A DNA stretch of 64,000 bases from Obrimoposthia wandeli (GCA_977020255.1 CDROCS010000960.1:558001-622000); one strand, 5' to 3'. Counted from the first letter of the stretch, positions 8,871 to 54,590 are shown. Numbers and translations are program-made. Notes: generated by a model from the sequence alone, not told the origin.

Positions 8871-8977
8871 TGTAAGTAAAATAATTAAATTATTGTATTT
8901 ATATATATATTTTTTTTTATTCAGTCTACAAATCAACCAATATCCAATCAGTCAAATCAAATCAATCATATCATCAG

Positions 8978-12618: not shown

Positions 12619-12689
12619 TAAATGTGTTTAATTTTGTATTATTCTCTGACTTCTTTCTTATTTATTTTTGATTTAATTTTTGATTTAAT

Positions 12690-21533: not shown

Positions 21534-22059
21534 ATTCTAGAGAAGATTATTCTCTCCTTTATTTCTCGTCACTACATTTATTTTGGCAGGGTCGCCAATT
21601 ATGATTTCTTTCGTAGACATAATTCAAAAGTTAAATTTCACAACACTATTTATATTATACAGGTTTATAAACGAATTAATAAACAAATATTGCCGGTAGG
21701 ATATTTTTGATTTTTGATTACTTAATTGAAGAATAGATTATTTTGAATTTGTAATCTTCTGACATTTGTTATTTTGTGTTAAAATATGTGATAGAGAAAT
21801 CTTTTTTAAACGTCAAAATTTACATTTTCTCTAAATTATTTAAATTTAAAGTCATTGCAGTTTAAACTTATAAAGCTTCATACAAATATAGGGATTTTTT
21901 TGGTTATGATTTTGAATTATGATATACATAGTGTTTATGTTTGGTAAAGTAAATTATATCCGGAAAACCTAATTGATATTTCTTCTTGTCTCTTTTATTT
22001 GTTTAAAAAATTATATTTAATACTTCCTATTTTTGAAAATTTATTTCTACAAACAAGAA

Positions 22060-25413: not shown

Positions 25414-26635
25414 ATGAGTTGCTCCAAAACCGAAATGTGTAATTTTGATAAACCACAACTAGTGGAAGATAATGCTTCCTTTGAAGAAAAATTTCTAGTT
25501 AACTCAGTTTCAGGAACCACTTTAACCGATTTAGAATTTAATATTAATGGTTCCAATAGCGAGTATTTAGATTTGAATGAAACTCTGCTTTATGTTCAAA
25601 TAAAAGTATTAAATCGAGATAGTACTAATTTAGAGGAAAATGCCGATGTAACATCTTTAAATTATCTATTTAATTCTTTATTTAGTGATGCCATTGTTAC
25701 TCTTAATAATGTCAAAATTGAAGGTGGAAATTCTTTCTATGCTCATAAAGCTTTGATTGGAATTCTATTGAATTATAGTACTGATAATCAAAATACTAAT
25801 TTAGCAACCAATGGTTATGATAAAATGGCTGCAACTCGCCAAGAATGGATTGCAAAATCTAAAGTTTACGAAATGTGTGGGTCTATGAGATTAAATTTCT
25901 TTGAACAACCGAAATATTTAATTCCCGGTGTTAATGTACATCTTCGTTTGAAAGGTAATAAATATAATTTTTCTTTGATAAGCACAGACGTTCTAAAACC
26001 TAGACTTGATATTTTGGATGCAAAATTATATGTTCGAAGAGTGAAAACCGAGCAATCAGTTTTAATGGCACATAATATAGGAATGGAAAAAACGATGCTT
26101 GTTATCCTATAAGATAAACTAAACTTATAACCTACTCTTTAGGTACGGATACACAAGCTTTTAATAAGGATCAAATTTTGGTGATATAAAATTACCGAAA
26201 TTTGTTTTAATATCTTTTCAAAAAACTGCAAAGTATCTAGGAAATTATACGACAGATGTAACTCAAATTGCTAATCTTAATGTAGGTTCAGTGACACTTT
26301 CAAGAAATACCGATTATCGTGAAACATATAAAACAGATTTTGAAGGTAATGCTTATGCTTTGGCTTATACGCAATCTATTATTCGGAATTTGGGCCAACT
26401 AGATAAAAATATAAACAATGGTATTTCTTTCACTGAGTTTAAAAGCAGCTGCCCCTTCTTCACATTTGTTTTGGTACCAGACTTTGATATAAACCAATGC
26501 CAACTACCAAATGATGGAAATTTACGACTAGAAATTAAGTTCAATGCAGCTTTAACACATCCTACTACGGTGCTTATTTACGGAGTGTTTGATTCCGAAA
26601 TACAAATCAATAAAAACATAACTGTCATATTATAG
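25414..26635 (+). pseudogene. Polinton major capsid protein pseudogene
   Basis: ORFs 25414-26112 and 26291-26635 align with the 3032-4252 MCP (YLDLNET, KYLIPGVNVHLR, GNLRLEIKF). Confidence 0.9.
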
Positions 26636-26636
26636 A

Positions 26637-26938
26637 ATGAAGTAAGACATTTTTTAAATTTATATTTAATTATTTTTATTTAGTTAGTACAAGTACAAGA
26701 ATCAGCAAAGAAGGTCCTGGGTGATAAATTCAATGGAGTTTATCCAATTGATATGATCCCATTTTTTCAATCTGGAGGTTAAATAATCAATACTCATACT
26801 TCGAATTTACCGGTAGAACATTGGATAGCTATTTATGTTAGAGAGTGGACAATACATGTATTTGATCCACTTGCAACGTGTTATACACACAAGTTTGTTT
26901 CAACTGTTTAGAAAAGTCTAAGAAGAGTATTTTACAAC
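26637..26938 (+). pseudogene. Polinton protease pseudogene retaining the ATG-AA / intron start
   Basis: ATGAA then GTAAGA...TTAG, then KFNGVY...G*IINTHTSNLPVEHWIAI...FDPL; truncated before the catalytic Cys. Confidence 0.75.
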
Positions 26939-27339
26939 AAGTAAATATTACAAATATTTTGATGATCATTGGAGTGATGAAGTATTTGAAATTTCAAAAA
27001 TCAATTTGCATGCTAACCCCGTAATGTATAATATCATAGATGAGAATAAATGTCCAACAGAGGGAAATTTTTTTGAGCAAGAATTATAAGTTATTGATAA
27101 ACCAAAAGTATATAGGATCCAAGGAATCATTAAATCTAATGGTCGAGGTAAGAATAAACAATATTACGTAAAGTGGCATGGATATAAAACACCAACATAA
27201 ATGAAAGCGAACCATATAGAGTTAAACATTCCTATATTGTATTACCACCTTATATTTGTTTAAACATTCAACTTAAAATACAAGGCAAATATATTATAAC
27301 AAACAAAATAAAGTAATTCAGTTAATGTATAAGCTTTTT

Positions 27340-31689: not shown

Positions 31690-33640
31690 TCAAACATTGG
31701 AGTGCGCATATTAAAATTCAACAATTCAACAACTTTATTTAAACTTTCTACAATCGATTTTACTTAGGCAACATCATGCAATCATAATCTCCATAACTTT
31801 GAAATGACCTAGGCCATTTCTTCTTTTTAAACAACTTTTTATATTTTAATATATTTTTATATTTTTAAATAGTAAGGGTCGGTCCTAAACATCCTCCCCC
31901 TTTGATCTAACTAGATCAACCTTAAACTAGCCTACCCCGATGCAGTTTCAGACCATGCCGGATCACTCTTTGATGTAGTTCCAGATCATGCCGGATCGTG
32001 CGTCACCGTCTTTTATTTTTCATCGTACTCCTCACGCCTCACATTCTAGCTTACAAAGAAGTCCGATCGACTTTTCTTCTGTCTTTGTCCCAATCTTCAC
32101 CGTTGTTACTCTCCCCTTCTTATCTGTTCCCGGACTGACCTCTACAACTCTCCCCAACTTTCACTGCCACCCTCTCACTTTGCTTATCAATAACCCAGAC
32201 CATAGCTTCATTCTTCAACGGCGTACGTTCCTGATTCTACCGTTGTCGAGGTACCCACATTGTCACAATCTCCTCCATCCATCGTTTCCATAGCTCTGTC
32301 GTCAACCTTTGTACGAACCTCCAACGCTGTTGTATACCACACTGTTTTCCTACAAAACCCGTTTCTACGTGTGCCTCGCCTATCAAAAAATGATTTGGTG
32401 TCAACGCCTCGCTCTCCTTCGGATCTATACTTTTTATCCCAATCGGCCATGAATTTATCAACGCTTCGGCTTCAATGAAGATTGTTGTTAACTCTTCGTC
32501 ACTAATGTCCGCGTTCTTCAGTAGTTTAAATATGGCCTTTTTTGCACATTTCACCATAATTTCAAAAACTCCTCCAAAGTGCGGTGTATAAGGTGGGTTA
32601 AACACCCATTCGATCTCAACTTTTTCTAATTCTTTCTTAATACTGTACGTATCTTGTATAAAACTCTTAACATCTGCTACCGCTCCAACAAAATTCTGCC
32701 CGTTATCCGATAAAAAACATTCTTGGTCGTCCTCGCCTTCCAATGAAACATTTTAACGCTCTGATCACTCCATCCGTTGTTAAATCATATGCGACTTCCA
32801 AATGCATTGGACCTCCGCCGCTGCATAAAACACTATTTGCACCTTCGTTGTACCTTTTTCTCGCCCGACAACCGGAAAATGTGGTAACAACCTGGATATG
32901 GCTCTCGATGACGGCCCTGTACTCCAATCTCAACCGCGTGTCCTTGTCTAGGCTTCTCTCCAAACTCTTCTGCCGCTGGTTCGCCATTTTACCACGGTAG
33001 GCTGACTTCATACCTTCCTTCAACTTCTTTTATGTCGAGTCGTGTTTCTTTTAATACCCTTTCGTCGTTATAACTTAACTTACTTTGGAGATTTGATACG
33101 GATTCTACTTCCCAGAACTTTCCTATATTAAATTCCTCCGTTTTGATTTGGGTTCCAAAATAGGTGTGGACCAAATTTGTGTGTTGTTCACCTCTATTAG
33201 CTCCTTGTGCCTGACCAATAGAAGTCCATCCCAACGGTGTCAATCTTGCTATCGGGGCACCTGGTCCTCTTCTCACTTCTTTAAGGGCACTCTGCAATTC
33301 GATGTTGTAAGCACCCAGAAATAACTCAAATTTTCTCTTTACGTTTACCGCTGGGAATTTATACCCTCCAAATGCCTCCACCTTTTTGCTTCTACTGACC
33401 AATTTATTACCTCTAAGTCTCAGTAATCTCTGGTACTGTTAATGCGTTGATTAGCTTCACATATTTTCGATCCGTGCTCCCTAATTCTATGTTAACTTCA
33501 GCACAGTTCATCGTTTCCACGTTTCCTCCAATGACCCCCACCTGAATACTTTGTTTTTGTCCTGACACTCTTAGCGTTGGTGACAAATCCTTACTAATAT
33601 ATGAGCGTGTGCTGGCATCGTCTAACAAAAGTCCAGATTT
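31690..33640 (-). mobile_element. Internally deleted BEL/Pao LTR retrotransposon fragment with PPT and 3-prime LTR
   Basis: Protease LLDDASTRSYI; TPLGW...RYEVSLPW; integrase SDNGQNFVGA, PHFGGVFEIMVK, LTPNHFLIG; PPT AAAGGGGGAGGA (31892-31903) followed by TGTT at 31891; RT/RNase H absent; far LTR end uncertain. Confidence 0.85.
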
Positions 33641-35199
33641 AAGGTTGAAAAAATTTAGCCAAAATGTACCTATTTTATGTCTCAAAACTGCTATATTTGC
33701 TCGACAGAAACATCTAAAACTCCAGTAACGTCTGCAATCCCTTTGAAAACTATGAAAGTTTCATTCAATTTTAATCCAAATGGATTTAAATGTCATTTGG
33801 AGTTGAAATGTATGTTTATTACGTATCAAACTATGATTCAAGACTCCACAAAATATGATATTAACTGACAGAAAAGTATGTAAATAAATCAAAATATGAA
33901 ATTGTATAAAAATAATCCCTAAGATTAAAATTTTGCAGTAAAGCAAATGAACTGCATTGTTTTGTTTGTCTCGTGCATTAAATATATACCGAATAAAATA
34001 GACTCATCTACTTTCCTGGAAATGTTAGCTAATATATTTCGTTGTAAGTTCATTTTTTAACAATTGTCATTTTATATTTTAAAAAATGCCGTAGATACTT
34101 AAGTACAGATGTTTTTAATTTACTTTGATTAAACAAATGCAGTTTATTGAAATTACAGATTAAAGATAAAATCAATATTCGCTCCTGTAAAAATTTCACA
34201 TTTTAATGCTTTTATGTATTTCACTTAAAATAAATAGCAACTTGAGCTATTTAACAACAATAGCGAGAGATTATTTATCTGAAAATAATTTTATTACTGT
34301 TTTAGTTTTGTTTTTTAAAGTTGGAATTATAATAAGTCTCCTCGAATAGCGAAATTTAAAAATCCTTATCTCGAAAAATCATCTTTAACAAGTATGAAAG
34401 GACTTCAAAACTTATATGTGACGTTTCCATTTAGAATGACAGTATATATTTGAAGGGAGTATCTCAATCTTGTTTTGTGTCTCCAAATCAGGCATTAAAT
34501 AGATCCATTAGTAATTGGAGATATGTAGAACCACCTTATTTTGCTAATAAGAAATTAAGAAATCTCAATTTTGTTTAAAAATCTAATAAAAATTCTTATA
34601 TGACACTTGAGTAGAGATATGTGAGGGTTTAACACCGATATTATTGATTTTTCAGGCTCTTCTATCCCACCTTCCACATAGTCTATATTGATAACATTTA
34701 TGACTCTGAAGCCTAACTTAAAAATGATTCGTACCTATTCATACAAAACTTATTACATAATAATGTAACCGTTTTTTAATATCAACCCACACATGATAAG
34801 ATATAAATTTTTCTTTCTTTGTAGCAAATATAAACGCATTGATATAATATTAGATAATAATGAAAAAGAATAGTGTAAAATGATTATATATAAACATTCA
34901 CAGAAATTAAGTTTTTTTATATTCTAAAAAAATGTACTGTCAACTTTGTAGAATCGAAACTATGCATGAGTATTCATTCAATGCTCTACTAAATAAAAAA
35001 CAACACAAGGAATGTAACATTTTTAAAAACCTTTTAATAATTCTAGAAAATATGCTTTGACAGTTAATCAATATAAATATGCGATCAAATAACAACATTT
35101 AGCATAATCTTTTTCATTCTAACAGACAAATAATACAATGCAGTCAACATCGAGGAACAACTACATCAATTAATCATTTAATGCAAGATATTCTTATAA

Positions 35200-36255
35200 T
35201 TATATGCATAAGTATTCAGATAACTTACTTTCTTGCTTTATCTCGACCAAAATCAATTGTAGATGTGCAAAACTATGATTCATTATGTTTTTAATGCTAT
35301 TCTCACAGTTTAAAAGGGTATTGTAATAATTAAGCATCGTTATCGTGTTTTATAATTTTCCCATATTTAATTTTTTCAAGTACGAGCCCAGTCAAATACC
35401 GCTGAAACTTACAGTTTTGCCTACATTTACAAAGCAAAATAAACTTTGATAAATTTATTTACTTTTAATATTGATTATGATTTTCAATGTAATGATGAGG
35501 ATACACATTAATTCATAATCCCTCGGTTGAAAGCATTCAATTTTGATAATACAAAAAGACAACACATTTCATTACATGCGAGTGATGAACTTAGATCGTT
35601 TATTGCATCTCGATTTTGATGAAATTCCAACAAGAAATGCTTACATGGTTTTAGGAAGCAGAATGCATATGATAAACATATTCAAATGTATTCATTAAGC
35701 TAACAAGGAGAATCAATTTACAAAATGATTTAAAAGCGTTTTTCAAAGTGATGACTTGTCAAAATATTTTGCTGCAAAGTTTTTAGTATATGCTGATTTT
35801 GAGTCATTGCTAGCACCGTATTATTTATATAAGCATATTCATTTTTGTTTAAAACACCAGCCATATGATAAACATATTCAAATGTATTCATTAAGCTAAC
35901 AAGGAGAATCAATTTACAAAATGATTTAAAAGCGTTTTTCAAAGTGATGACTTGTCAAAATATTTTGCTGCAAAGTTTTTAGTATATGCTGATTTTGAGT
36001 CATTGCTAGCACCGTATTATTTATATAAGCATATTCATTTTTGTTTAAAACACCAGCCATATGATAAACATATTCAAATGTATTCATTAAGCTAACAAGG
36101 AGAATCAATTTACAAAATGATTTAAAAGCGTTTTTCAAAGTGATGACTTGTCAAAATATTTTGCTGCAAAGTTTTTAGTATATGCTGATTTTGAGTCATT
36201 GCTAGCACCGTATTATTTATATAAGCATATTCATTTTTGTTTAAAACACCAGCCA
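35200..36255 (+). pseudogene. Degenerate Polinton polB fragment
   Basis: KSIVDVQNYDSLCF, FHYMRVMNLDRLL, KKCLHGF, FLVYADFESLLAP and KHQP match the N-half of the 8978 polymerase. Confidence 0.8.
35666..36253 (+). repeat. Exact 196-bp tandem triplication
   Basis: Units start at 35666, 35862 and 36058 (CATATGATAAACATATTC...AAAACACCAGC). Confidence 0.95.
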
Positions 36256-36425
36256 AGTAGGTGCTTTGATGGAGTCTAGACCACTGGGGGGGGTCCCCTG
36301 TGTGCGCACACCAAGTTAAAGGGTGTCACACCATAAGGGTGTCACACCATAGAAATGTCACACCATAGCGTGTCACACCATAAGGGTATATGTTGCCTCA
36401 CCCTAGGGGTGTCTTGCCACACCAT

Positions 36426-37019
36426 AAGGGTCTGGCTCAGAAAGGTTATGAAGGTTTGAAGGTATGGTCGTGACCGTCTATGGTCGGCCAACATACCCAA
36501 GGGGTTGTGGTCATCCATAGGTCAAAGGGTCTGGCTCAGAAAGGTTATGAAGGTTTGAAGGTATGGTCGTGACCGTCTATGGTCGGCCAACATACCCAAG
36601 GGGTTGTGGTCGTCCATAGATCAAAGGGTCGGGGTCAGTTTTGACTTGAAACTTTGAAGGTATAATTAAGGTCAACTATGGTTGGCCGTCACATCTAAAG
36701 GGTTGTGGTCGTCCATAGGTCAAAGGGTCGGACTCAGTTTTGACTTGAAACTTTGAAGGTATAATTAAGGTCAACTATGGTTGGCCGTCACATCTAAAGG
36801 GTTGTGGTCGTCCATAGGTCAAAGGGTCGGGGTCAGTTTTGACTTGAAACTTTGAAGGTATAATTAAGGTCAACTATGGTTGGCCGTCACATCTAAAGGG
36901 TCATGGACGTCCATAAATCAAAGGGTCAAGGTCAGTTTTGACTTGAAACTTTGAAGGTATAATTAAGGTCAACTATGGTTGGCCATCACATCTAAAGGGT
37001 TGTGGTCGTCCATAGGTGA
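36426..37019 (+). repeat. About 99-bp subterminal minisatellite, 6 units
   Basis: AAGGGTC-initiated units at about 36426, 36523, 36623, 36722, 36821 and 36920. Confidence 0.85.
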
Positions 37020-39399
37020 AAGGGTCGGGCTAAAAACAAAGTCAAGTTTAAAATATCAAGGTTTTAGTACATGGTTGGAATCATCTTTAGAAGGTGAATT
37101 CAGTCATAAAGTATGGTCGGTCATATATGAAGGGTTCGGGATATAGACCAAATCAAGTTTTAAATGTCAAAGTTTTAATACATGGTTGTATTCATCTTTA
37201 GAAGACGAATTCATCCATATATGTATGGTCGTCCATAGATGAAGGGTTAAAGAAAAGTTGGAATTTCATAGTTTCAAGTACATGGTTGTATTCGTCAACA
37301 TATTACGAGTTTAATCATGTAAAATTTTTATGGTCGTTCACAAGTTAAGGGTAAGATTTGGAACAAACATGATAATTTTATTACATGGTTGTATTTGCAT
37401 ATGAAAATTGACTTCAAAGATACCCTTAAGGTCATGCATACTTTAAGAGGTCCTTGTGAAAAAAAAAAATAAAAATACTTGTAATTTTCTAAAATAAAAA
37501 TATTTTTAAATTTAAATTTGTGCCAAATTATTTTGTTAGATTTTGGTAAAGATAAACAAATTTTTAATTTAACAAGTTTTTTAAGATATTAAAGTAACAT
37601 TATTTAAAATAAATATTAAGGAAAAAGTTAATAAACTCAAATTACTTTACTAATAGTATTATTATTATTATAATTTGATAAATATTTAAATTTAAGCAAA
37701 TTTTTATCCATTTTATTAATGTAATTAAACAATTCTTTGCGGAAAAATTACTTGTAATTTTGTTTTTCTTCAAAATAATAATAATTTAAATTTGCGCCAA
37801 TTTAATTTGTTAGATATTAATAAAGTTAAACAAATTTTAATTTAACAAGTTTTTAAATATTAAAGTACCAACACATCTATCAATCAATTATTCTATGTGA
37901 AAGTTCACTCTTATCAGTTAAGGAATGTATTACGTAATAATACACACACTATTATATGTGAAAATTTAGTACAAAGTTTTTCCCAGGCTTAGGCATCTAA
38001 AGAATTATGGTAAAATTTCTTTAAATAACTTAAATTTCATGTCATAAGGGTCTTGGAGAAAAATACTTGTAATTTTCTAAAATAAAAATATTTTTAAAAT
38101 TTAAATTTGTGCCAAATTTTTTATCGTTTCTTTGATTTAATTAAACAAATTTGATTTTAAACATAATGTTAATTATAAAATAATTAATAATTTGATAAAA
38201 ATTCATCTTACCACAAGTTATTCATTGAATCCATTGATGTATGTCCGTCAGCCTAATAGCATTATTCTATAATCTTACTGTAACTTTAGAAAAAATAACA
38301 AATTTATTACATTAAAATTTAAAAATTGCGCGGTTTTTTATTGTTTACAATTAATGTATTTAAACAATGAAGAAAATAGTTTCAAACGCAAAGCAATTCA
38401 TATTAACAAGTACTATTTGATATTTTTAAAATATAAATAATTTATTTAAAAAAAAAAAGAATACTTCAAGTTCAAGTTAAATTTTGATAAAAGTCTGTAA
38501 AATGATAAATTCTAACATTTTTTTTATATGTAAATGACCGACATTTGTATATTATCCCTTTTGATGTATTTAAACAAATGTATATACAAACCTAATTATT
38601 ATAACTATAAGTTAAATATCTTAAATATTTATTAATTTTAAAATTGCATTATTTTATGATTGTAATTTATTCCTAAAATAATTTGTAATTTTCAAATTAA
38701 TACTAGCAACCAATGAATAACATTAATATGTTTACATTATATTAATTAATATGTACATTTTCATGTGTGTGTTTTCTCTCACATAACTTTCACATGTTAT
38801 AATGATCAATTAACACTCACATAAATAATTAAAACATCCTTATAACATTCCTTAATTGATTTTTATTTAAACTGATAAAATTAACTTCATGTTATTCAAA
38901 GCTTACTGGTTAAAGAAATGTTTATTTATATAATTTGAGTATTAACTTTATTCGATTTTCACTATAAATATTCGAAAATATCTTTAACACATTCAAAATA
39001 ATCATAACTTCATGTTATTCAAAGCTTACTGGTTAAAGAAATGTTTATTTATATAATTTGAGTATTAACTTTATTCGATTTACACTATAAATATTCGAAA
39101 ATATCTTTAACACATTAAAAAAAAAAAAATAACTTCAATTTTTAAAATTTGTATCGAATATTGAAAATTCATTTGAAAACACATGTTAATCAAAGCTACT
39201 GAAAGCCTTGTCTATAAATTCGAATATCAAATCTTTAATAATATTGTTTTATATGTAAATAAATCAAATTATGTATATATTCGATTATCAACTTAGTATT
39301 TATATTTATTATTCGACTTTCTAAAATAATTAAAATGTCTTGTAAAAACACATAAAATTAATTATCGATTGTATGAATTAGTACAAGTATGAATGCAAA

Positions 39400-40330
39400 T
39401 ATGAAGGCAAATACTAGTAAGAGCCTTAGCAAGTGAATGTAATTGAAAAAATAAGAGTGTCGAGAGTTTGATTGAATGCAAGTGTAATTTAGACTATAAG
39501 TAAATTAAAATAGAGTTTTCGTTGAATAAATTATAGTTAGATTGAATGCAAGTATGAATGTAAGTGAATGCTAGTATGAATTTCAATACAAGTAAGTGTC
39601 TTAGCAAGTGAATGTAATTTAAAAATAAGAGTGTCAATAGTTTGATTGAATTCGAGTGTAAGTTAGACTATAAGTAAATTAAAATAGAGTTTTCGTTGAA
39701 TAAATTATAGTTAGATTGAATGTAAATGAATGCAAGTATGAATTCAAGTGAATGCAAATACAAGCAAGAGTCTTAGCAAGTGAATGTAATTGAAAAAAAT
39801 AAAAATAAGAGTATCGATAGTTTGATTGAATGCGAGTGTAATTTAGACTATAAGTAAATTAAAATAGAGTTTTCGTATGAATAAAGTTATGTTAAGTTAC
39901 AGTAAATTAATAACAAGTAAGCAACTATAAGAAGCAGTGATATTGAAGTATGTTAAAAATTAGAACGACTAAGTTATGGCAAGATTAATAGAAAACAACA
40001 CTAAATTTGACAGTATGAATGAAAATTAGTAAAATATTAATGTATTTGAATGTATTTGAATGATAGTTTGAATAAATTACTGTTAGATTGAATGTAAATG
40101 AATGCAAGTATGATTGAATGCAGGGTCAAGTACAAGTAAGAAAGAATACGCAATATGCAAGTACGAATGTCAATTATGAATGAAAATTAGTAAATATATT
40201 AATGAATTTGAATGCTAGTTTAAATATATGAGAGTTAGAATGAATGTAAGTGAATGCAAGTATGAATGTAAGTGAATGCAAATATGAATACAAATACAAG
40301 TAAGAATCTTTGCAAGTGAATCTTAAACTG
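39400..40330 (+). repeat. GAATGCAAGT-type degenerate satellite with about 174-bp higher-order units (mirrored at about 43990-44950)
   Basis: AGCAAGTGAATGTAATT recurs at about 39428, 39602 and 39775. Confidence 0.8.
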
Positions 40331-42027
40331 CAAGTGAGTACTAGCTAATTATTAAATTAATACTATCAATCAATGAAGATGATGTAACAACCTGATGAAG
40401 TTATAATAATTAAGATGCGAACTTTCATATTTTCACATAGTTTACCTCCATATTAAAGTTAACCTTTCATACATACTCATGCAATTAAATAATTAAAATG
40501 TCTTATCTCGTTTGATAAAATTCCTTAATTGAAATATTTTAAAATAATTAGTTTAATTTAAATTCTTTATTTTTAAATAACTTGATTATACAATTATATT
40601 CGTAAATATAATTGAAATTATCATTATTCGTTTCTCTTTTTAACTATTCGAAAATATATTTAAATACAAATTTAGTAAATTAACTCAACAAACAATTTTA
40701 TTTTTTAATTACTTGATATTTTTGCCATTGTCTTATTAATATAATATGAATATTCAATTTATTTCTTCAAAAATTCATTTTTATATGTTAAATAATATTC
40801 TTTATCACATTATTGTGGTTTTTATCAAGTGATTTTAACATTAAACTATAAAAATATTTTAATTATAAAGTTAGTAGCTGTACCGCGCCCACTGCATATA
40901 ATATAAATTTCAAATATAAAGTATTATTAAATGTATTCTTTCAAATAGTAAAAGTTCTTTCGATTTATTTAGTTTTGTTTACTAGACATTCGAAAATTGA
41001 CTTGTAAACTAAATATATTTTCGCATATATTCACTTTAATATGCTGTAAGTTATTACTTTAATATAATTTACAACCTAAACTTCAAGTAATTTACTTAAT
41101 AATCATAATATTAATGATTTGTACGATAAATTGACTTGTAAACATAAAATATTTACAACAACAAACTTCAAGTAGTTTACTTATTAATGATAATTTAAGG
41201 ATTTGTACAATAAATTGACTTGTAAACATAATTTATTTTGCATATTCATTTAATATATTGTAAGTTAATACTGTAATATTTCATTACATAAAAAGTAATT
41301 CATAGTTTACTGTCGTTTACAATAAATTGACTTGTAAACATAATTTATTTTGCATATATTTAGTTTAATACGTTGTAAATTATTACTGTAATATTCCATT
41401 ACATAAAAAGTAATTGATATTTTACTGTCGTTTACTATAAATTTACTTGTAAACATAATATATTTATGAATATATTCAGTTTAATATGTTGTAAGTTAAT
41501 CGAACTAGTGTACTTGTACAAAATTTGTTCAAAAATTACTTGTAAACATAATATTTTTTGCATATATTTAGTTTAATACGTTGTAAGTTATTATTGTAAT
41601 ATTCCATTACATAAAAAGTAATTGATAGTTTAATGTAGTAAAATATTCGAAAATTATTTGTAAACAGATTATATTTTATTTTATTTTATTTTTTTTTTTT
41701 TTTTTTTACTATAAATTCAAAAAAAAAAACAACTTTGTTTTGCAATTTGAATAAATTTCCTTATTATTTAATATTTTGAATATTCATACTTATATGAATA
41801 TTGTATATTGTATATTTTTTATACAAGTATCGACATGTTGTGATTTGATTTCAAGGTTTATAATCAACGTGAATATAAATATAATTTATATATATATATA
41901 TATATATAACATTAGCTGCACAGTTATATGTTAAGTTAACTTGGTTATTGTTATAACAGTTTTTATTTAAAATATATATATAATAATAATAATAGAACGA
42001 AATATAAAATATATTAAAATACAGATA

Positions 42028-42690
42028 TCACCATAACTCTGGTTTACCTAGATGTTTCGCCCAAAACTCTTCAAGATACTCATCATCTAGATTAGCCTTA
42101 TACCATAATATTGGCAAAATCTCCTTCTCTGGTAATCCATATTTAGGGATAAGATTAGTAAGATTTCTCTCACAATCTCTCTGAAATGATAAAGTTAAAT
42201 TAAAATAGCCATTAAATAAATATACTCATACCATATAGAATTCCAAGTAAATTATTACAAATTTTTTGTAATCATGAATTTTTCCGATATAATTCTGCAT
42301 GAATGCAAGATCACTGTTTTTTAACGGACCATAATCTTCATTTAAACGATGGAGAATGTTGTCAATTATAACTACTTTTTCTGCTGTTAGTGCTTTTTTC
42401 ACCATATTTTCGTAGGGTAATTTATTTAATTTAAGTTTATAAGATAAAGCAAACATTTTTTGTTGATGAACATCAGCATACTTCATGATTAATTTGAACT
42501 TATTTTGAACATATAATAGAGCTTGTTTGTTTAATATTCCTTCTTCTTTCTCCAACTGTAAACTCCAAATTCTAATTAAATACTTTATTTCTTCTTCTTT
42601 GTTAGAGTCATAAATTATTTGTCGTGCTTCAACATCCTGGCAGACATCGTCATACATTTCTAGAAATTGCTGATCAGTGATTTCATTCAT
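42028..42690 (-). CDS. Two-exon hypothetical protein (203 aa): exons 42232-42690 and 42028-42180
   Basis: 51-nt phase-0 intron GTATGA...TTTCAG (42181-42231); splicing joins ...LEFYM to RDCERNLTNLIPKYGLPEKEILPILWYKANLDDEYLEEFWAKHLGKPELW*. Confidence 0.75.
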
Positions 42691-43099
42691 TTCCTTGTAC
42701 TAATTTAATTGTTAATAAATTATCTTATATAACTAATAATGAATACCTAGTTCCGTTAATCAATGAATTATCTATTATTCAATATCCTGTTAATTATATT
42801 AAGTATAAAATACATTTACTTTAGGTATACATATATATATATATATTTTAATAATAAGACAAAAAGTAAGAAAACGTATTTAGTTTTAATATTACAATCC
42901 TAAATATCATAACAACCAAGTTAACTTACCAGATAACTGTGTAGTTAAGGTAATTTATCATTTAGTCTAAAACAATGAATACCAAATCGCCTACAATGCA
43001 TGTATAATTTTTAATTGTCAACTACAGTAAACTATAATTACTCTTTGTGTACAGTAATAATTTTCAATATATTAAAGTAAACATTTACAAAATATAATC

Positions 43100-46000
43100 T
43101 GTTTACAAGTCAATTTATCGTACAAATCCTTAAATTATGATTAATAAGTAAACTACTTGAAGTTTGTTGTTGTAAATATATTATGTTTACAAGTCAATTT
43201 ATCGTACAAATCATTAATATTATGATTATTAAGTAAACTATTTGAAGTTTTGGTTGTAAATTATATTAAAGTAATAACTTACAACATATTAAAGTGAATA
43301 TATGCAAAATTATATTTAGTTTACAAGTCAATTTTCGAATGTCTAGTAAACAAAACTAAATAAATCGAAAGAACTTTTACTATTTGAAAGAATACATTTA
43401 ATAATACTTTATATTTGAAATTTATATTATATGCAGTGGGCGCGGTACAGCTACTAACTTTATAATTAAAATATTTTTATAGTTTAATGTTAAAATCACT
43501 TAATAAAAACCACAATAATGTGATAAAGAATATTATTTAACATATAAAAATGAATTTTTGAAGAAATAAATTGAATATTCATATTATATTAATAAGACAA
43601 TGGCAAAAATATCAAGTAATTAAAAAATAAAATTGTTTGTTGAGTTAATTTACTAAATTTGTATTTAAATATATTTTCGAATAGTTAAAAAGAGAAACGA
43701 ATAATGATAATTTCAATTATATTTACGAATATAATTGTATAATCAAGTTATTTAAAAATAAAGAATTTAAATTAAACTAATTATTTTAAAATATTTCAAT
43801 TAAGAAATTTTATCAAACGAGATAAGACATTTTAATTATTTAATTGCATGAGTATGTATGAAAGGTTAACTTTAATATGGAGGTAAACTATGTGATAATA
43901 TGAAAGTTCGCATCTTAATTATTATAACTTCATCAGGTTGTTACATCATCTTCATTGATTGATAGTATTAATTTAATAATTAGCTAGTACTCACTTGCAG
44001 TTTAAGATTCACTTGCAAAGATTCTTACTTGTATTTGTATTCATATTTGCATTCACTTACATTCATACTTGCATTCACTTACATTCATTCTAACTCTCAT
44101 ATATTTAAACTAGCATTCAAATTCATTAATATATTTACTAATTTTCATTCATAATTGACATTTGTACTTGCATATTGCGTATTCTTTCTTACTTGTACTT
44201 GTAAATGCATTCAATCATACTTGCATTCATTTACATTCAATCTAACTGTAATTTATTCAAACTATCATTCAAATACATTCAAATACATTAATATTTTACT
44301 AATTTTCATTCATACTGTCAAATTTAGTGTTGTTTTCTATTAATCTTGCCATAACTTAGTCGTTCTAATTTTTAACATACTTCAATATCACTGCTTCTTA
44401 TAGTTGCTTACTTGTTATTAATTTACTGTAACTTAACATAACTTTATTCATACGAAAACTCTATTTTAATTTACTTATAGTCTAAATTACACTCGCATTC
44501 AATCAAACTATCGATACTCTTATTTTTATTTTTTTCAATTACATTCACTTGCTAAGACTCTTGCTTGTATTTGCATTCACTTGAATTCATACTTGCATTC
44601 ATTTACATTCAATCTAACTATAATTTATTCAACGAAAACTCTATTTTAATTTACTTATAGTCTAACTTACACTCGAATTCAATCAAACTATTGACACTCT
44701 TATTTTTAAATTACATTCACTTGCTAAGACACTTACTTGTATTGAAATTCATACTAGCATTCACTTACATTCATACTTGCATTCAATCTAACTATAATTT
44801 ATTCAACGAAAACTCTATTTTAATTTACTTATAGTCTAAATTACACTTGCATTCAATCAAACTCTCGACACTCTTATTTTTTCAATTACATTCACTTGCT
44901 AAGGCTCTTACTAGTATTTGCCTTCATATTTGCATTCATACTTGTACTAATTCATACAATCGATAATTAATTTTATGTGTTTTTACAAGACATTTTAATT
45001 ATTTTAGAAAGTCGAATAATAAATATAAATACTAAGTTGATAATCGAATATATACATAATTTGATTTATTTACATATAAAACAATATTATTAAAGATTTG
45101 ATATTCGAATTTATAGACAAGGCTTTCAGTAGCTTTGATTAACATGTGTTTTCAAATGAATTTTCAATATTCGATACAAATTTTAAAAATTGAAGTTATT
45201 TTTTTTTTTTTAATGTGTTAAAGATATTTTCGAATATTTATAGTGTAAATCGAATAAAGTTAATACTCAAATTATATAAATAAACATTTCTTTAACCAGT
45301 AAGCTTTGAATAACATGAAGTTATGATTATTTTGAATGTGTTAAAGATATTTTCGAATATTTATAGTGAAAATCGAATAAAGTTAATACTCAAATTATAT
45401 AAATAAACATTTCTTTAACCAGTAAGCTTTGAATAACATGAAGTTAATTTTATCAGTTTAAATAAAAATCAATTAAGGAATGTTATAAGGATGTTTTAAT
45501 TATTTATGTGAGTGTTAATTGATCATTATAACATGTGAAAGTTATGTGAGAGAAAACACACACATGAAAATGTACATATTAATTAATATAATGTAAACAT
45601 ATTAATGTTATTCATTGGTTGTTAGTATTAATTTGAAAATTACAAATTATTTTAGGAATAAATTACAATCATAAAATAATGCAATTTTAAAATTAATAAA
45701 TATTTAAGATATTTAACTTATAGTTATAATAATTAGGTTTGTATATACATTTGTTTAAATACATCAAAAGGGATAATATACAAATGGCGGTAATTTAAAA
45801 AGATGTTAGAATTTATCATTTTACAGACTTTTATCAAAATTTAACTTGAACTTGAAGTATTCTTTTTTTTTAAAATAAATTATTTATATTTTAAAAATAT
45901 CAAATAGTACTTGTTAATATGAATTGCTTTGCGTTTGAAACTATTTTCTTCATTGTTTAAATACATTAATTGTAAACAATAAAAAACCGCGCAATTTTTA

Positions 46001-48361
46001 AATTTTAATGTAATAAATTTGTTATTTTTTCTAAAGTTACAGTAAGATTATAGAATAATGCTATTAGGCTGACGGACATACATCAATGGATTCAATGAAT
46101 AACTTGTGGTAAGATGAATTTTTATCAAATTATTAATTATTTTATAATTAACATTATGTTTAAAATCAAATTTGTTTAATTAAATCAAAGAAACGATAAA
46201 AATTTTGGCACAAATTTAAATTTAAAAAATATTTTTATTTTAGAAAATTACAAGTATTTTTCTCCAAGACCCTTATGACATGAAATTTAAGTTATTTAAA
46301 GAAATTTTACCATAATTCTTTTAGATGCCTAAGCCTGGGAAAAACTTTGTACTAAATTTTCACATAGAATAGTGTGTGTATTATTACGTAATACATTCCT
46401 TAACTGATAAGAGTGAACTTTCACATAGAATAATTGATTGATAGATGTGTTGGTACTTTAATATTTAAAAACTTGTTAAATTAAAATTTGTTTAACTTTA
46501 TTAATATCTAACAAATTAAATTGGCGCAAATTTAAATTATTATTATTTTGAAGAAAAACAAAATTACAAGTAATTTTTCCGCAAAGAATTGTTTAATTAC
46601 ATTAATAAAATGGATAAAAATTTGCTTAAATTTAAATATTTATCAAATTATAATAATAATAATACTATTAGTAAAGTAATTTGAGTTTATTAACTTTTTC
46701 CTTAATATTTATTTTAAATAATGTTACTTTAATATCTTAAAAAACTTGTTAAATTAAAAATTTGTTTATCTTTACCAAAATCTAACAAAATAATTTGGCA
46801 CAAATTTAAATTTAAAAATATTTTTATTTTAGAAAATTACAAGTATTTTTATTTTTTTTTCACAAGGACCTCTTAAAGTATGCATGACCTTAAGGGTATC
46901 TTTGAAGTCAATTTTCATATGCAAATACAACCATGTAATAAAATTATCATGTTTGTTCCAAATCTTACCCTTAACTTGTGAACGACCATAAAAATTTTAC
47001 ATGATTAAACTCGTAATATGTTGACGAATACAACCATGTACTTGAAACTATGAAATTCCAACTTTTCTTTAACCCTTCATCTATGGACGACCATACATAT
47101 ATGGATGAATTCGTCTTCTAAAGATGAATACAACCATGTATTAAAACTTTGACATTTAAAACTTGATTTGGTCTATATCCCGAACCCTTCATATATGACC
47201 GACCATACTTTATGACTGAATTCACCTTCTAAAGATGATTCCAACCATGTACTAAAACCTTGATATTTTAAACTTGACTTTGTTTTTAGCCCGACCCTTT
47301 CACCTATGGACGACCACAACCCTTTAGATGTGATGGCCAACCATAGTTGACCTTAATTATACCTTCAAAGTTTCAAGTCAAAACTGACCTTGACCCTTTG
47401 AATTATGGACGTCCATGACCCTTTAGATGTGATGGCCAACCATAGTTGACCTTAATTATACCTTCAAAGTTTCAAGTCAAAACTGACCTTGACCCTTTGA
47501 CCTATGGACGACCACAACCCTTTAGATGTGACGGCCAACCATAGTTGACCTTAATTATACCTTCAAAGTTTCAAATCAAAACTGACCTTGACCCTTTGAA
47601 TTATGGACGTCCATGACCCTTTAGATATGATGGCCAACCATAGTTGACCTTAATTATACCTTCAAAGTTTCAAGTCAAAACTGACCTTGACCCTTTGAAT
47701 TATGGACGACCACAACCCTTTAGATGTGACGGCCAACCATAGTTGACCTTAATTATACCTTCAAAGTTTCAAGTCAAAACTGAGTCCGACCCTTTGACCT
47801 ATGGACGACCACAACCCTTTAGATGTGACGGCCAACCATAGTTGACCTTAATTATACCTTCAAACCTTCAAGTCAAAACTGACCCCGACCCTTTGATCTA
47901 TGGACGACCACAACCCCTTGGGTATGTTGGCCGACCATAGACGGTCACGACCATACCTTCAAACCTTCAAGTCAAAACTGACCCCGACCTTTGATCTATG
48001 GACGACCACAACCCATTGGGTATGTTGGCCGACCATAGACGGTCACGACCATACCTTCAAACCTTCACAACCTTTCGGAGCCAGACCCTTTGACCTAGGG
48101 ACGACCACAACCCCTTGGGTATGTTGACCGACCATAGACGGTCACGACCATACCTTCAAACCTTCATAACCTTTCTGAGCCAGACCCTTATGGTGTGGCA
48201 AGACACCCCTATGGTGAGGCAACATATACCCTTATGGTGTGACACGCTATGGTGTGACATTTCTATGGTGTGACACCCTTATGGTGTGACACCCTTTAAC
48301 TTGGTGTGCGCACACAGGGGGGACCCCCCCCAGTGGTCTAGACTCCATCAAAGTACCTACT
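43100..48361 (-). repeat. Right arm (about 5.26 kb) of the palindromic element, with 9 minisatellite units
   Basis: GACCCTTT-type unit boundaries at about 47293, 47392, 47491, 47590, 47689, 47788, 47887, 47986, 48084 and 48183. Confidence 0.93.
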
Positions 48362-49149
48362 CAGCCAATAATTATTATTATTATTATGTAGATATAACAT
48401 GCATCCCAGATTTGTTAGAGTATCATATAAAATAGCAACGGGTATTGCTAAAAGATTATTCTGCAGTATATAAGTTTTAATGTGATATTACATTTAAAAA
48501 AAAAACTCTAACTCAAATTTTTCTAGAGAAAATGATGTATTAATGGAGATGAAACAGACTTGTGAAATTGAGTTCGTACTATTGATAGCGAAGATATTGA
48601 ATTACAGCATCATTACGAGCTGGCTTACAGAATTTAGAGGAAATCTTCAGTGTCTGTCTTGGCGCTATCATTTAGAGATTTTCGAGGGAAACTCTAAAAC
48701 AAATAGCTCCAGAATCTTCTCAGTTCACACGAACAGAGGCAAATATTGGTTCTTCAGCTTAATTTCCCAATGTCTGTCTGGTCGCGCTTCGTGGCTAGAG
48801 GACAATTCGACAGAAGCGGTGCTAGAACCACTCTGCACTAGTTCTCGGTATTGCTGCATTGTTTGCTGGCAGGCAGCGCATCCTCACCCAAGTCTATGTC
48901 GTCATCATTATCGTCTTCTTCCTCCTCTTCCCATCGCGATGACGCCCATATCAACGCTGAGTATTTTTCAAGATTGTCAACTCGTGAAGAAAGTCTGTCT
49001 TGTGTGTGTGGGACTTTGTGTGCGACTGAAATCAGAAATCCGTCTTTCGTTTAAACAGCTGATCTCATTATGCTATTCATACACAATATCATTTTATCCC
49101 TGAATACTGGTTCATTTTATCATTATCACGAATGTGTGATGGGTTACTT

Positions 49150-50450: not shown

Positions 50451-50760
50451 ATGAAATACAAAAATGATGCGGTATATCAGATAGGGGACCCAGTGATAGT
50501 GGTAAAACACATTTTGTAACTAAATTATTACAAAACTATAAAATTCTTAATAATCGATTTAATAAGATTTATTGGCATTATGGTGATGTTTGCGAATCTG
50601 GGTTAACGAGAAGTGAATCAGATAAACTTAAAAACATAAAATGTATGAATGTTTTCGATCAAAACTGGTTTAAACGGTTTAAGCGTGATGATGTTATAGT
50701 AATTGATGACTTGTATGAAGAAGCAAATAAAGAGTCAAACTTTAATAATTTATTCACTAA
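50451..50760 (+). pseudogene. Polinton packaging ATPase relic
   Basis: GPSDSGKTHFVTKLL (frameshifted), NKIYWHYG, DDVIVIDDLYEEANKESNFNNLFTK. Confidence 0.85.
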
Positions 50761-50781
50761 ACAAACAACTTCTTGACAATA

Positions 50782-50905
50782 CAGTAATTATTCACCTATA
50801 AGGGGTCCCATAAGTGCCTATAAATAATGCATCTATAAGTGATTCGGTGTCGGTCTCTCTCAAAAACATGTTTTAATGAATACCCTTACAGGTGAATAAT
50901 TACTG
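50782..50905. mobile_element. 124-bp Tc1/mariner-type MITE
   Basis: TIR CAGTAATTATTCACCT(A/G)TAAGGG at both ends; TA duplicated at 50780-50781 and 50906-50907. Confidence 0.8.
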
Positions 50906-53247
50906 TAATGCACTTATTGTTAGTTTACTTTTCAACACTGTATGAGCTAAGGGGGAATCATACTGGTTTAAACTTCCATCACAGTCAGATTTGTTAATGT
51001 GTAGCATACAAGTTGCATTTGTAATCTTACTACCTCCCACAGTTGTCCTTACGTCCTTTGCTTTATGTGCTAATCTACTAGTTGGTAGTCGGCTTTCTTC
51101 AATAACTCAAGTCTTAACTAACTTTCTGTCATCTGTCATTTGTTCTTCATAAAGTATACTAAATTAGAAGCTACAGTCACATGACCCTGTCTAGACTTTC
51201 TCTAATATTTTGGTCAGACGTGTTTTAAAATTTGACCAATCCTGTCGGTACTGTTTGATGTCTGGTCTGTAAAATAGACAGACGATTTAAATGTAATAAT
51301 GTTGTTGATAGCATTTGAAATAATAAGTAAAGTGGGTTAATGGATTTCAGACTGCAATGAAGAATGTAAACTGGCTCGGCTTATATGCCTCAAATACAAA
51401 ATGGATATGGATACTATACAAATGGATAGGTATCATACAGAGATGTAACTGGGGTTACCATGCATACGTAATGTATGACAACGCCCACCTTTCAGAAATG
51501 CCTTTTATTATTTTTTTATTCTATGCAAAAAATACTTGTGTATCTTTTAACAACAAAATTAAATTGCACTTTTTTTAAAATTTCAAGTACTAAGCAGTTG
51601 GCAAAATGTGTTGTAAACTTCATTGGGAATATCAAAAGTGGCAAGCCTACAGATAAACAACGATGGTGTATTAAAATTAAGTTGAAAGTTGGACGTATGA
51701 AATGACAAGCTCACTGAGCGAAACAGTTTAGTTTGGCCAAGAGAAATGTATTTGTTTCAAATTTGTATAAGTTGTAGACAATTTTATTATGTACTATCCA
51801 TAAACATCAGTAATAAATATACGACATATAAAATAAGATTATTATGAATAAAAATTGTATTGGATTAAAATTGATTTCATTTCAAATCAGATTTTAATGA
51901 TGAACTCGTTTTTCGGTGACAACATCGATCAAAGCCAGAAACACATCTGGATGTATCCAACTCTTTTTCTTTAACTTGTTCAAGTGAACAGAATGTCGAA
52001 ACTAAGTTAAATTAAATCATAAATGGAAATATTTCTATCTCTGATTAAAATTCAATTATTTTGTTAATAAACTTTGGGTTTTGGATGGTATATTTACATT
52101 TTGAAACTGTACAATAATGTGAATTACAGACAGAAAAACGATGTCATAAAGTAAAACTTATTATAAAGTGTTAAATAAAGAACTTTTATCGAAAAAAAAA
52201 CTGTTTAATTTTAAATGAATAATTAACATATATAGATATACTTAAAATACACTTACAAAATATGTAGGATACCAAATATCTGCCATGATTTTTAATTTGT
52301 TTTTCAAACTTTTGTTAAAACAAATGTGAACAATTCAATTTCATAAATCAACTTCAGCGCTTGCAAGTGTTCGTTTGTTAAAAAGAACCATGGAATTTGT
52401 TACAAACATTTGTAGTTTTGTTACTTAGTTACATTATATATTTTTGCATTTCATTTAAACAACGACACACATATGAAGTTATTGTTAGTGGCGAGATAAA
52501 ATAGTGTTTGGTTCCAAAAAACGGACAAATAACCTTTTTTAAATTAAAAATATTAAAATTAAAATTATTTCATTCAACAACAAACTCTCGACATTATTAT
52601 TTTAATTTCAATGTCAATATTTTCTGACCTACTACAAATAAATTAACATTCAATACATTGATTTATTGTCTATTGAATAAGCTACTTTTCAGATACTATA
52701 TTACAGTATTACTATAAATGTATTTAACTTTATAGTAAAGTTCTTGAGAACAATGTAGCTGGAAAATCATTTATAAAATATAGGTTTTATGTGGTTGATA
52801 ATGCAACACCACATAGAAGTAATGTCTCAAACCGTTTTGTCACAAACCAATAAATATATAAGACAAAAGTTGTGGAGGTACAATATTTTATTTACCTTAG
52901 CGAGAATTATCAAATTCCCCGCTCAAGAATATATAAAAATAGGAAACATGAATAAAAGACTAACTCTAGTAAAAGGTTCCCCTGAGGAGTACCCTTTACT
53001 GCAAATATATTTTGAGGCAGTACGCACGATTTCAAGACTTTTTAAATATCGCCCCATTACAAATTTTCCCGATTATACAGGGTCAAATATCTCGCTATTC
53101 TATAAGAGGGGAGCCCTGCATGACCGTGCAGCACCTTTGGTAATGAAAATGTTAAGTATACTTTTGTTTATAGTGAAACGACAATAAAACTACACTCAAT
53201 AAATATTAAACTTTCTTATGTTCTCCTGTAATTTTCCATATAGGCTT

Positions 53248-53652
53248 CTATCTTCCGAGCTTATCAAATTTGAAACCTTGAATTTGTATGAATAAAATCC
53301 AATAATTGCTTTTGGGAAACTCTCTATCAGAGTAATTATATATTCCTGCGAATAAATTTTCATCGGCTTTAATGAAAGCACTGACGTTTTCAATTTTGAA
53401 GTCCAATTTCCTTCCTTTGAAAATAGCATTAATATGATTTATATCCGTATTGTGAATTCTTGAGATTACATAATTAAACTTGGATTTTGTTAGCATGACA
53501 GGGTATTGAAATCTATAGGTTACAGGCATCTTGAGAAAATTCAATGAATAATTAAAGTAAGATACCGCTTCATTAAACACGTTTTCATTGAAAATATCTT
53601 CTAATTCCGTATCATCGGAATCTATATGGATTGTGTTAACCTTGGTTAACAT
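53248..53652 (-). CDS. Hypothetical ORF or gene relic (134 aa), divergent from the polB relic
   Basis: Protein-like composition (IDSDDTELEDIFNENVF...); no family recognised; non-ATG start. Confidence 0.3.
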   Translation of the reverse strand: MLTKVNTIHIDSDDTELEDIFNENVFNEAVSYFNYSLNFLKMPVTYRFQYPVMLTKSKFNYVISRIHNTDINHINAIFKGRKLDFKIENVSAFIKADENLFAGIYNYSDREFPKSNYWILFIQIQGFKFDKLGR

Positions 53653-53742
53653 TAAGCATTATGTAATAAATTTTCGTTTACTACAATTCTATGGTTTTCT
53701 TGGTGTTGAAATCTTTAAAATTAATTAGGCTAATCGGTATAG

Positions 53743-54590
53743 ACAAGCACTTGTTTTAAAACAACATATAGATTTTAATTCAAACAAGCGGGCAACGAAT
53801 GTCAATAAATTTGAATATGAATTTTATAAGTTAAAAAATAATTTCGTTTACGGTAAAACGGTTGAGAATCTTAAGAGGCGACTTGATATTAGATTATGTA
53901 ATAACGATAAACGGCTTGAAAAATTAGTTTCAAGTCCTTGGTTTAAACGTCATACTCAAATAAATGAGGATTTAAATTTAGTTTTTATTCAGAAACAGGA
54001 AATATGTTTAGACCAGCCTTGCTATATTGGTCAAGCTGTATTTGATTTATATAAATTACGAATGTATAAATTACAATATGTTGAGTTTGAACGGTATAGG
54101 CAAACTTTTAATTGTAGTATTCGAATTGTAGCTATGGACACAGATTCTTTTTTCCTTGAGTGTGTGAATATTAATAAGGATAAATTACTCAAAGAAATGA
54201 TTAAGGATGGGTATTTAGATGCGAGTAGTTATCCTAAAATACATCCCTTGTATTCAGTAAACTTTAAAGCTGTGATTGGAAAATTTAAAGATGAAAGTGA
54301 GGGTACTGATTATAATGAATGGGATTTCTTAAACCAAAATGTTATTCACTTCAAAATAAATTAGGGGCTAAGGGTATTTCTTTAAAAACAAACAAACTGA
54401 AGACAACAAGACTACCTCAATTGTTATGAAAATGAAGAAATTATTAGTGTTAACCAGTCACGTATATCATTATTAATCATCAGCTTCACACAACATTTAC
54501 CTCTGAGGTTGCGTTAAAATATTTTAATGATAAAATGAGATGGGTTAGTAAGAATAAAAGCCTTGCTTATGGTCATTTCAATTTAACTTA
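53743..54590 (+). pseudogene. Polinton polB C-terminal relic
   Basis: FYKLKNNFVYGKTVENLKRR, AMDTDSFF, IGKFKDESEG, KSLAYGHF. Confidence 0.9.

Follow-up and report, generated by a model that had tools for sequence, protein, structure and literature searches.

The 64,000-nucleotide stretch of Obrimoposthia wandeli DNA analysed here (GCA_977020255.1 CDROCS010000960.1:558001-622000; hereafter the window) contains at positions 36,256-48,361 a 12,106-bp palindromic element which, by its sequence ends and its 6-bp target-site duplication (TSD), is a non-autonomous Polinton. On balance we slightly favour the reading, drawn by analogy with packaged viral genomes, that this palindrome is a trans-mobilised satellite in inverted-dimer form, the length of which is likely kept near that of a helper Polinton genome by packaging into the helper capsid. 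That the family to which it belongs is mobilised in trans by Polinton enzymes is almost certain; the need for helper enzymes in trans is inferred from the absence of enzyme genes together with a high copy number. The evidence for these two statements, and for the alternatives, is set out below.

Architecture of the palindrome

An earlier note, made from the sequence of the window alone, had described a gene-less palindrome with its own 6-bp TSD, padded with satellite DNA and paired with a gene-bearing helper. The palindrome is real. Comparison of the window with itself gave one large inverted repeat (36,426-41,326 against 43,011-47,893; 97.1% identity over 4,905 columns), and the outer limits of 36,256 and 48,361 were set by reading the ends beyond this match. 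The inverted repeats, ~5 kb each, account for ~85% of the element length, with only 25 mismatches in 4,250 columns in the arm interior (36,958-41,206). Beyond the two flanking copies of CAGCCA the sequence on the left is unlike that on the right. The features of the element are as follows:

36,256-48,361, whole palindromic non-autonomous Polinton derivative, 12,106 bp, terminus type B
36,250-36,255, plus strand, left TSD copy, CAGCCA, 6 bp
36,256-41,326, plus strand, left arm of the inverted repeat, 97.1% identical to the right arm
36,256-37,361, plus strand, outer ~1.1 kb of the left arm, with a 99-bp array at 36,426-37,031 and 111-bp repeats, with homology to the terminal repeat on the polymerase side of type-B full-gene Polintons
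37,362-41,326, plus strand, AT-rich non-coding stuffer with 123-bp, 174-bp and 84/115-bp arrays
37,900-38,036, plus strand, 138-bp block with a mirror copy at 46,284-46,421, matching the inner terminal repeat of either helper type at ~90% identity
40,096-40,106 (position approximate), plus strand, microhomology site at which the arm passes into a helper capsid half in three hybrids elsewhere in the genome
41,327-43,010, central non-palindromic loop, unique part 41,720-43,000
43,011-48,361, minus strand, right arm of the inverted repeat, with three 99-bp units more than the left arm
46,958-48,361, minus strand, terminal block of the right arm, with a 99-bp array at 47,293-48,189
48,362-48,367, plus strand, right TSD copy, CAGCCA, 6 bp

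The outer ~1.1 kb is presumed to provide the replication origin and the integrase site, and the 138-bp block is a candidate cis signal. None of the helper open reading frames (ORFs) for capsid, penton, integrase, ATPase, TBP-like protein or polymerase found a match within 36,256-48,361, in agreement with the claim that the palindrome carries no polB, int or capsid sequence. A search of the palindrome against Rfam returned 0 matches, and the stuffer at 37,362-41,326 holds zero ORFs of at least 60 amino acids starting at ATG. The description of the element as padded with satellite DNA proved inaccurate: tandem arrays, summed by eye, make up about one third of it, and the 99-bp array belongs to the helper's own terminal repeat. 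Nor is this copy gene-less, as its loop holds an ORF at 42,690-42,226 (minus strand), with a 153-codon exon under purifying selection; loops with no gene are the commoner form genome-wide.

Gene-bearing Polintons and the probable helper

The gene-bearing element of 12,413 bp that had been reported in the same window is present, and has the following features:

1,319-13,731, gene-bearing Polinton, terminus type A, 12,413 bp, TSD ATAATC (6 bp)
4,282-3,032, minus strand, double-jelly-roll capsid, 416-amino-acid ORF, found by a fold search with a predicted model
5,712-4,696, minus strand, presumed penton, labelled by position and size, no family match
6,756-6,043, minus strand, rve integrase with a chromo-like tail (Pfam rve, E 4e-10)
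~7,900-7,313, minus strand, presumed packaging ATPase, labelled from position and motifs, no family match
8,951-8,406, minus strand, TBP-like ORF (Pfam TBP, E 2e-12)
8,885-12,618, plus strand, protein-primed PolB, split into two frames near 11,215-11,236

The capsid was identified by fold search and the polymerase by means of the ESM Atlas. The capsid model (pLDDT 91, built with an 86-sequence alignment) resembles the double-jelly-roll capsids of iridovirus, PBCV-1, Sputnik and mavirus with E values of 1e-16 to 1e-12, and the helper polymerase half scored 0.98 to PF03175 clusters; a sequence search against solved structures gave nothing significant for either the capsid or the polymerase ORFs. 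The TBP-like ORF is present in the other full-gene copies too. The split of the helper polymerase is not attributed to a programmed frameshift, as only one of the ten other copies that match there shares it. Ten full-gene Polintons, including that of the window, measure 11,745-12,994 bp, with a median of 12,297, and their terminal repeats are ~0.8-1.1 kb long.

In the sequence-level checks that the note had proposed, the notion of a helper and satellite pair held up as regards the pairing, the mobilisation in trans and the snap-back architecture; by terminus, however, the Polinton of the window is not the closest helper. The blocks that had been noted as shared between the two elements exist (the terminal motif, one block of 96 bp with 81% identity and another of 138 bp with 90%) but they are small, and the type-B subfamily is the better fit. 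In a type-B full-gene Polinton elsewhere in the genome (G000:C72) the whole ~1.1-kb end is 82-91% identical to the palindrome, the arms of which correspond to its longer, polymerase-side repeat, and the terminal 30-mer of the palindrome is near-identical to that of the autonomous type-B Polinton. On sequence grounds a type-B Polinton is the likely replication helper, because the outer 1.1 kb is shared with type-B elements and only short blocks with the Polinton of the window, which is accordingly downgraded as direct helper. The window Polinton and G000:C72 are ~95% identical in DNA sequence over the capsid half and ~77% over the polymerase half, and their termini differ, which suggests that polymerase and terminus type travel together; polymerase exchange has been reported in nematode Polintons (PMC10748475).

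Copies of the palindrome in the genome

The genome searched is AT-rich and comprises 1.35 Gb. Exact matches numbered 1,809 for the type-B terminus pattern of the palindrome, 7,759 for the type-A pattern of the window Polinton and 2,872 for a third terminus variant, with 0 for the reversed control in each case; the termini thus occur in many copies, as had been expected of a mobile family, and not in a single one. The first 100 listed matches were paired by eye, and all 19 type-B pairs and 27 of the 28 type-A pairs were retrieved, the pair left out being one of 108 bp. An exact 6-bp duplication bounds 18 of the 19 type-B and 24 of the 27 type-A pairs (42/46 overall). The type-B pairs comprise two full-gene elements, three with capsid and integrase and no polymerase, eight palindromes of 9.8-13.0 kb and six shorter elements, and seven of the type-A pairs are full-gene elements; capsid and polymerase are therefore present together in 2/19 and 7/27.

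Loop-bearing copies number at least 822 with a non-coding loop and 131 with the loop of the window copy (exact matches), so that about one loop in seven bears the gene. The same palindromic architecture recurs with differing TSDs at dozens of loci, and the copies are mostly 85-99% identical and all young.

Three hybrids without polymerase (G000:C49, C116 and C165:221,822-234,003; 10.9-12.2 kb, with different TSDs) each consist of 3.85 kb of palindrome arm joined to a helper capsid/integrase half at one common microhomology junction. In addition, at least 15 type-B termini lie in tandem at G000:C52:645,204-691,771 with a period of ~3,323 bp, as an array of the element end.

Element length and possible packaging

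The length set consists of 30 copies that have a loop and, at their borders, a duplication which is exact or agrees at five of six positions, a 26.4-kb copy with a large interior being excluded. These copies measure 4,746-17,358 bp with a median of 10,881, or 0.88 of the helper median. Of them 25 lie at 0.67-1.07 of the helper median (8.3-13.0 kb) and 22 at 0.75-1.07, a packaging window of a type borrowed from adenovirus which may not be that of Polintons. The predicted clustering near the length of the helper is hence seen in the median, whereas the spread is wider than "near 12 kb", with a full range of 4.7-17.4 kb. Symmetric copies exceed asymmetric ones in length, with medians of 10.8 kb (27 copies) and 5.6 kb (23 copies; p=0.001). 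The clean deletion junctions of all four short copies tested occur once in the genome, from which it follows that these four failed to spread. Long forms, by contrast, have junctions that several of the retrieved copies share (6 and 3 copies). Four polymerase-less, capsid-bearing elements fall at 10.8-12.2 kb. By analogy, it seems somewhat more probable than otherwise that satellite size is set by encapsidation in the helper capsid.

A number of results weigh against this reading or against parts of it. Five of the 30 bounded copies lie outside 0.67-1.07 of the helper median (4.7, 6.7, 6.7, 14.8 and 17.4 kb), and five of the 27 symmetric copies are below 0.65 (3.3-7.7 kb), the two shortest of which look like one duplicated locus. 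The junctions tested represent 4 of 18 short copies, and the control for recurrence comprised retrieved copies only. In copies without a module of 2 kb per arm the arrays are larger (median 4.5 kb in 11 copies, against 2.7 kb in the 18 that have it; p=0.01), by a test picked after the data had been seen and on related copies which are not independent; the compensation is incomplete, with median totals of 8.8 kb without and 11.2 kb with the module, and the rank correlation for length compensation is not significant (rho -0.25, p=0.18). Retrieval windows extended +/-9 kb, and longer elements are therefore under-counted. A duplication, exact or nearly so, bounds 12 of 20 gene-loop matches, a sample drawn from the best-scoring ones, and 6 of 20 consecutive plain-loop matches. 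As all copies are young, their length could be a matter of simple inheritance. None of the ten full-gene-set Polintons has every frame intact as assembled. In three copies (C3748, C119 and L141 (C6789)) the flanks are reverse-complement in place of a direct duplication, so that the assembly may misjoin some palindromes; these three are possibly assembly fold-backs or inverted rearrangements. Variants present on one arm outnumber those on both (291 vs 127), and the loop gene described below has several 1-bp indels in exon 1 common to 2-6 copies and no selection signal in exon 2 (singletons 6/38 vs shared 4/12 in the same test as for exon 1, p=0.43).

Two TSD-bounded spans of ~26.5 kb, about twice the unit length, were also observed (G000:C18:103,125-129,543 and C17:664,019-690,571), the former with polymerase ends mirrored on both arms and an interior of ~19 kb.

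Probable origin and homogenisation of the arms

In type-A copies each arm starts with the helper polymerase-side repeat, followed by the polymerase 3' end and a 63-bp internal relic. The 63-bp polB relic and the polB 3' end were found on both arms of A_C31b, A_C35b, C243, C298, H_C64, H_C90, H_C101a and H_C103, and in A_C18 ~1.1-1.3 kb of the polB end is present on both arms. It is very likely that the palindrome arose by inverted duplication of the polymerase-side end of a helper; this one-end origin is seen directly in type-A copies, and for the window copy it is inferred. When stuffer and loop were compared with three helpers at the DNA level, the 138-bp block was found and otherwise only short or low-complexity matches, so that the palindrome is not a pure snap-back of a helper genome. 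A derivation of the stuffer from decayed helper coding sequence was unsupported in the same DNA-level comparison.

The two arms of a copy resemble each other more than they resemble the arms of other copies: for three segments, in 13-16 copies each, median divergence within and between copies was 0.25 vs 1.3%, 0.28 vs 1.1% and 0.9 vs 3.1%. A 260-bp deletion junction is mirrored on both arms in six copies, with two terminus types. The arms have probably been homogenised during replication. Their likeness would fit homogenisation through a panhandle in protein-primed replication followed by independent decay, the alternative being chromosomal gene conversion.

An orphan gene in the loop

The gene-bearing type of loop contains:

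42,232-42,690, minus strand, orphan-gene exon 1, 153 codons, under purifying selection, predicted all-helical with low confidence
42,181-42,231, minus strand, predicted 51-nt GT-AG intron, GT in 39/41 and AG in 38/41 copies
42,028-42,180, minus strand, predicted exon 2, 50 codons and stop
41,902-41,955, 54-bp imperfect inverted repeat, 81%, paired with 42,905-42,958 around the gene

For the loop type of the window 150 of 663 candidates were scored, and over the unique part (41,720-43,000) the 40 copies with the best scores are 93-100% identical. Variable captured cargo was rejected as a description of the loops, as all seven other loops compared hold one common non-coding sequence. Selection was assessed in 41 copies, namely that of the window, 20 from the best-scoring list and 20 chosen for low identity, which are related and thus not independent. 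Singleton variants of exon 1 were 13 synonymous against 99 other, and variants shared by at least two copies 14 against 19 (Fisher p=2.1e-4); the same test in the shifted frames gave p=0.82 and 0.32. Because shared variants are richer in synonymous changes than singletons, the sequence data indicate that purifying selection acted on exon 1 during the spread of the lineage and that the exon decayed neutrally after insertion. An overlay of four contig sets from one sample showed no joint, a result that speaks neither for nor against splicing or expression.

No homolog of exon 1 was found in Pfam, in a set of 5.8 billion proteins (near and longer lengths), among 1.84 billion representatives or in phage records, and neither exon matched PHROGs. 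The best ESM Atlas score for the loop protein was 0.76, below the level often reached by shuffled sequences, and its single-sequence fold (pLDDT 50.6) is too low for a fold search. Elements that bear the gene have ends of type A, of type B or of the third variant, and 40/40 further gene copies examined adjoin arm sequence; a loop transposon bounded by the 54-bp repeats, which had been entertained, is unsupported given that all 40 do so. As judged by selection, the gene is of benefit to the mobile lineage and is not required for movement; one guess is that it modulates helper replication, packaging or host silencing. One TSD-bounded copy of 17,358 bp (G000:C1650:170,259-187,617) carries two gene loops in the same orientation.

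Proposed mechanism and alternative explanations

Under the satellite reading, helper-derived ends and a non-coding stuffer are arranged as an inverted dimer, for which full-length Polintons would supply the polymerase that copies it and the integrase that inserts it. In protein-primed, strand-displacement replication the displaced strand could fold into a ~5-kb panhandle, which would keep the arms alike, and a capsid step would select ~0.7-1.07 genome lengths. Short forms would arise by deletion after insertion and fail to spread, loss of stuffer modules would be partly offset by growth of tandem arrays, and the accessory gene in about one in seven loops may aid the mobile lineage while remaining dispensable for movement. 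The precedent is adenovirus, for which gutless genomes are reported to rearrange toward wild-type length when they fall short of 75% or exceed 105% of it, and a 15-kb vector to be packaged as direct and inverted dimers (PMC4189039).

The strongest alternative, which we consider possible though clearly the less probable, is a Foldback- or Galileo-like non-autonomous Polinton with no capsid step, mobilised in the nucleus by helper polymerase and integrase, with arms grown by repair or conversion and a size of ~11 kb that is inherited or set by replication and integration. The TSD, terminus and copy data are equally compatible with it, the family is young and its length spread is loose. The longest terminal repeats of Galileo are reported in non-autonomous copies, having been extended by recruitment of internal sequence and tandem repeats, and the Galileo authors mention inverted-repeat expansion in Polintons (PMC3573991). 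The same source, however, describes Galileo repeats of only up to ~1.26 kb and non-autonomous copies that vary widely. In the present genome, lineages that differ in structure (in their terminus, of which there are two or three types, in which of two loops they carry and in whether they keep the 2-kb module, the capsid-bearing hybrids being a further kind) all lie at ~8-13 kb, and the four short forms tested did not amplify. If size were not filtered, one would in general expect shorter templates to prevail, which also counts against this alternative.

An improbable alternative to packaging is a defective-interfering or host-tolerated silencer, acting through multi-kb hairpin RNA, folded from read-through transcripts, against helper ends and polB relics or through a loop protein that damps the helper. 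The arms do hold helper terminal-repeat and polB-end sequence in inverted form and the loop gene is under purifying selection, but most loops are gene-less (822 vs 131), helpers are abundant and young, and the length is left unexplained; such a role could hold in addition to packaging. It is very improbable that the loop gene is the element's own mobiliser and the family semi-autonomous: in its favour are the conservation of the gene, its place between the 54-bp inverted repeats and the arm sequence next to it in all 40 further copies, yet the gene has no nuclease, integrase or polymerase match, encodes ~200 codons at most, is outnumbered six to one by gene-less loops, and sits in elements with the ends and 6-bp duplications of Polinton helpers. 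Equally doubtful is an assembly artefact of fold-back reads or mis-joined repeats, for which the flanks of C3748, C119 and L141, the loop-less and near-perfect palindrome C118 and three identical 196-bp units at the left flank of the window element could be cited, since a directly repeated 6-mer bounds the window copy and the flanks beyond are dissimilar, one of its arms departs from the other in substitutions, indels and three 99-bp units, and the architecture recurs at dozens of loci with different TSDs.

Comparison with known systems and significance

The palindrome resembles Polintons/Mavericks (PMC6431247, PMC8502044), here presumably of the adintovirus type with a Group-2-like polymerase, in terminus motif and 6-bp duplication. 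Autonomous members encode a protein-primed PolB, an rve integrase and a double-jelly-roll capsid, all of which are absent from the palindrome, and inverted repeats that reach ~5 kb in the palindrome measure ~0.8-1.1 kb in the helpers. Non-autonomous Polintons with helper ends and no enzyme genes, mobilised in trans, were reportedly already described by Kapitonov and Jurka in 2006 and in Repbase. By its ends and target duplication the element belongs with these; in its presumed way of working it is akin to a gutless satellite in inverted-dimer form, a class defined by encapsidation and interference. We found no account of unit-length giant-palindrome Polinton derivatives in the titles, abstract openings and passages of the open literature covered, with subscription journals and Repbase outside the search.

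Helper-dependent adenovirus vectors are alike in that only the ends are needed in cis and the remainder is non-coding stuffer, with a reported size window of 75-105% of the helper and half-size genomes packaged as inverted dimers (PMC4189039). They are engineered and non-integrating, however, whereas the palindrome is natural and integrated at ~1,000 loci, and its packaging is a proposal. Snap-back and inverted-dimer defective genomes share arms taken from one parent end and differ in the source of the interior. A minority of Foldback elements, FB-NOF, have a gene-bearing loop. Foldback-type elements such as Galileo also have chimeric copies and extended inverted repeats with internal repetition, of which non-autonomous copies have the longest; Galileo, however, is described as a cut-and-paste element of the P superfamily with 7-bp duplications and repeats of up to ~1.26 kb (PMC3573991), compared with Polinton ends, 6 bp and 5-kb arms here. 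Mimivirus transpovirons are reported to be linear, with terminal inverted repeats and no capsid genes, and to ride in helper particles (PMC5499653), but at ~7 kb and with their own helicase they are far smaller than their helper, while the palindrome has helper length and no replication gene; within it no SF1 helicase was found, the sole coding-like ORF being the orphan with no family match. Nematode Mavericks (wasp, krma) are reported with intron-bearing cargo between Maverick ends (bioRxiv 10.1101/2022.07.12.499685), similar to the predicted intron-containing gene here, though that cargo lies beside core genes in largely complete Mavericks and the gene of the palindrome lies, homolog-less, in a loop with no core genes.

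More tentatively, the family may be viewed as a satellite of an animal-type Polinton virus that amounts to a natural and endogenous "gutless vector", with helper ends only, an inverted dimer filled to capsid size by stuffer and arrays, terminus swaps between helper subfamilies, polymerase-less capsid-donor recombinants and a selected accessory gene of its own. If this were true, the length distribution would be a genomic record of Polintons passing through a virion at each spread. It is still debated whether Polintons of multicellular hosts form particles and whether they depend on these for multiplication inside a genome, a matter said to await an experimentally characterised life cycle (PMC5499653). 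An element of helper length with no capsid gene, the short products of which do not spread, is predicted by packaging and not by purely nuclear copying. The family also offers a resource, with ~1,000 loop-bearing copies, ~6,000 paired-end equivalents, a minimal set of cis signals and a selected orphan gene, and ~1,000 dispersed palindromes of ~10 kb in one large eukaryotic genome bear on genome stability and assembly.

Other features of the window

Immediately to the left of the palindrome, at 35,666-36,255 (plus strand), the three 196-bp units are 100% identical and the last ends in the TSD; they lie within the decayed polymerase relic of an older Polinton, and arose either when sequence at the edge of the insertion was duplicated or through a slip in assembly. 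Fragmented ORFs at ~32,200-33,800 (minus strand) may derive from an LTR-retrotransposon integrase region, which they resemble by eye; the one tested gave no Pfam match. Decayed relics of other Polinton families occupy 24,869-27,184 and 50,468-54,588, and these relics show 52-58% amino-acid identity for capsid and 34-51% for polymerase. Finally, an uninterrupted ORF of 849 codons at 22,021-24,570 (plus strand) encodes three kinase domains (Pfam Pkinase, E 8.5e-36).

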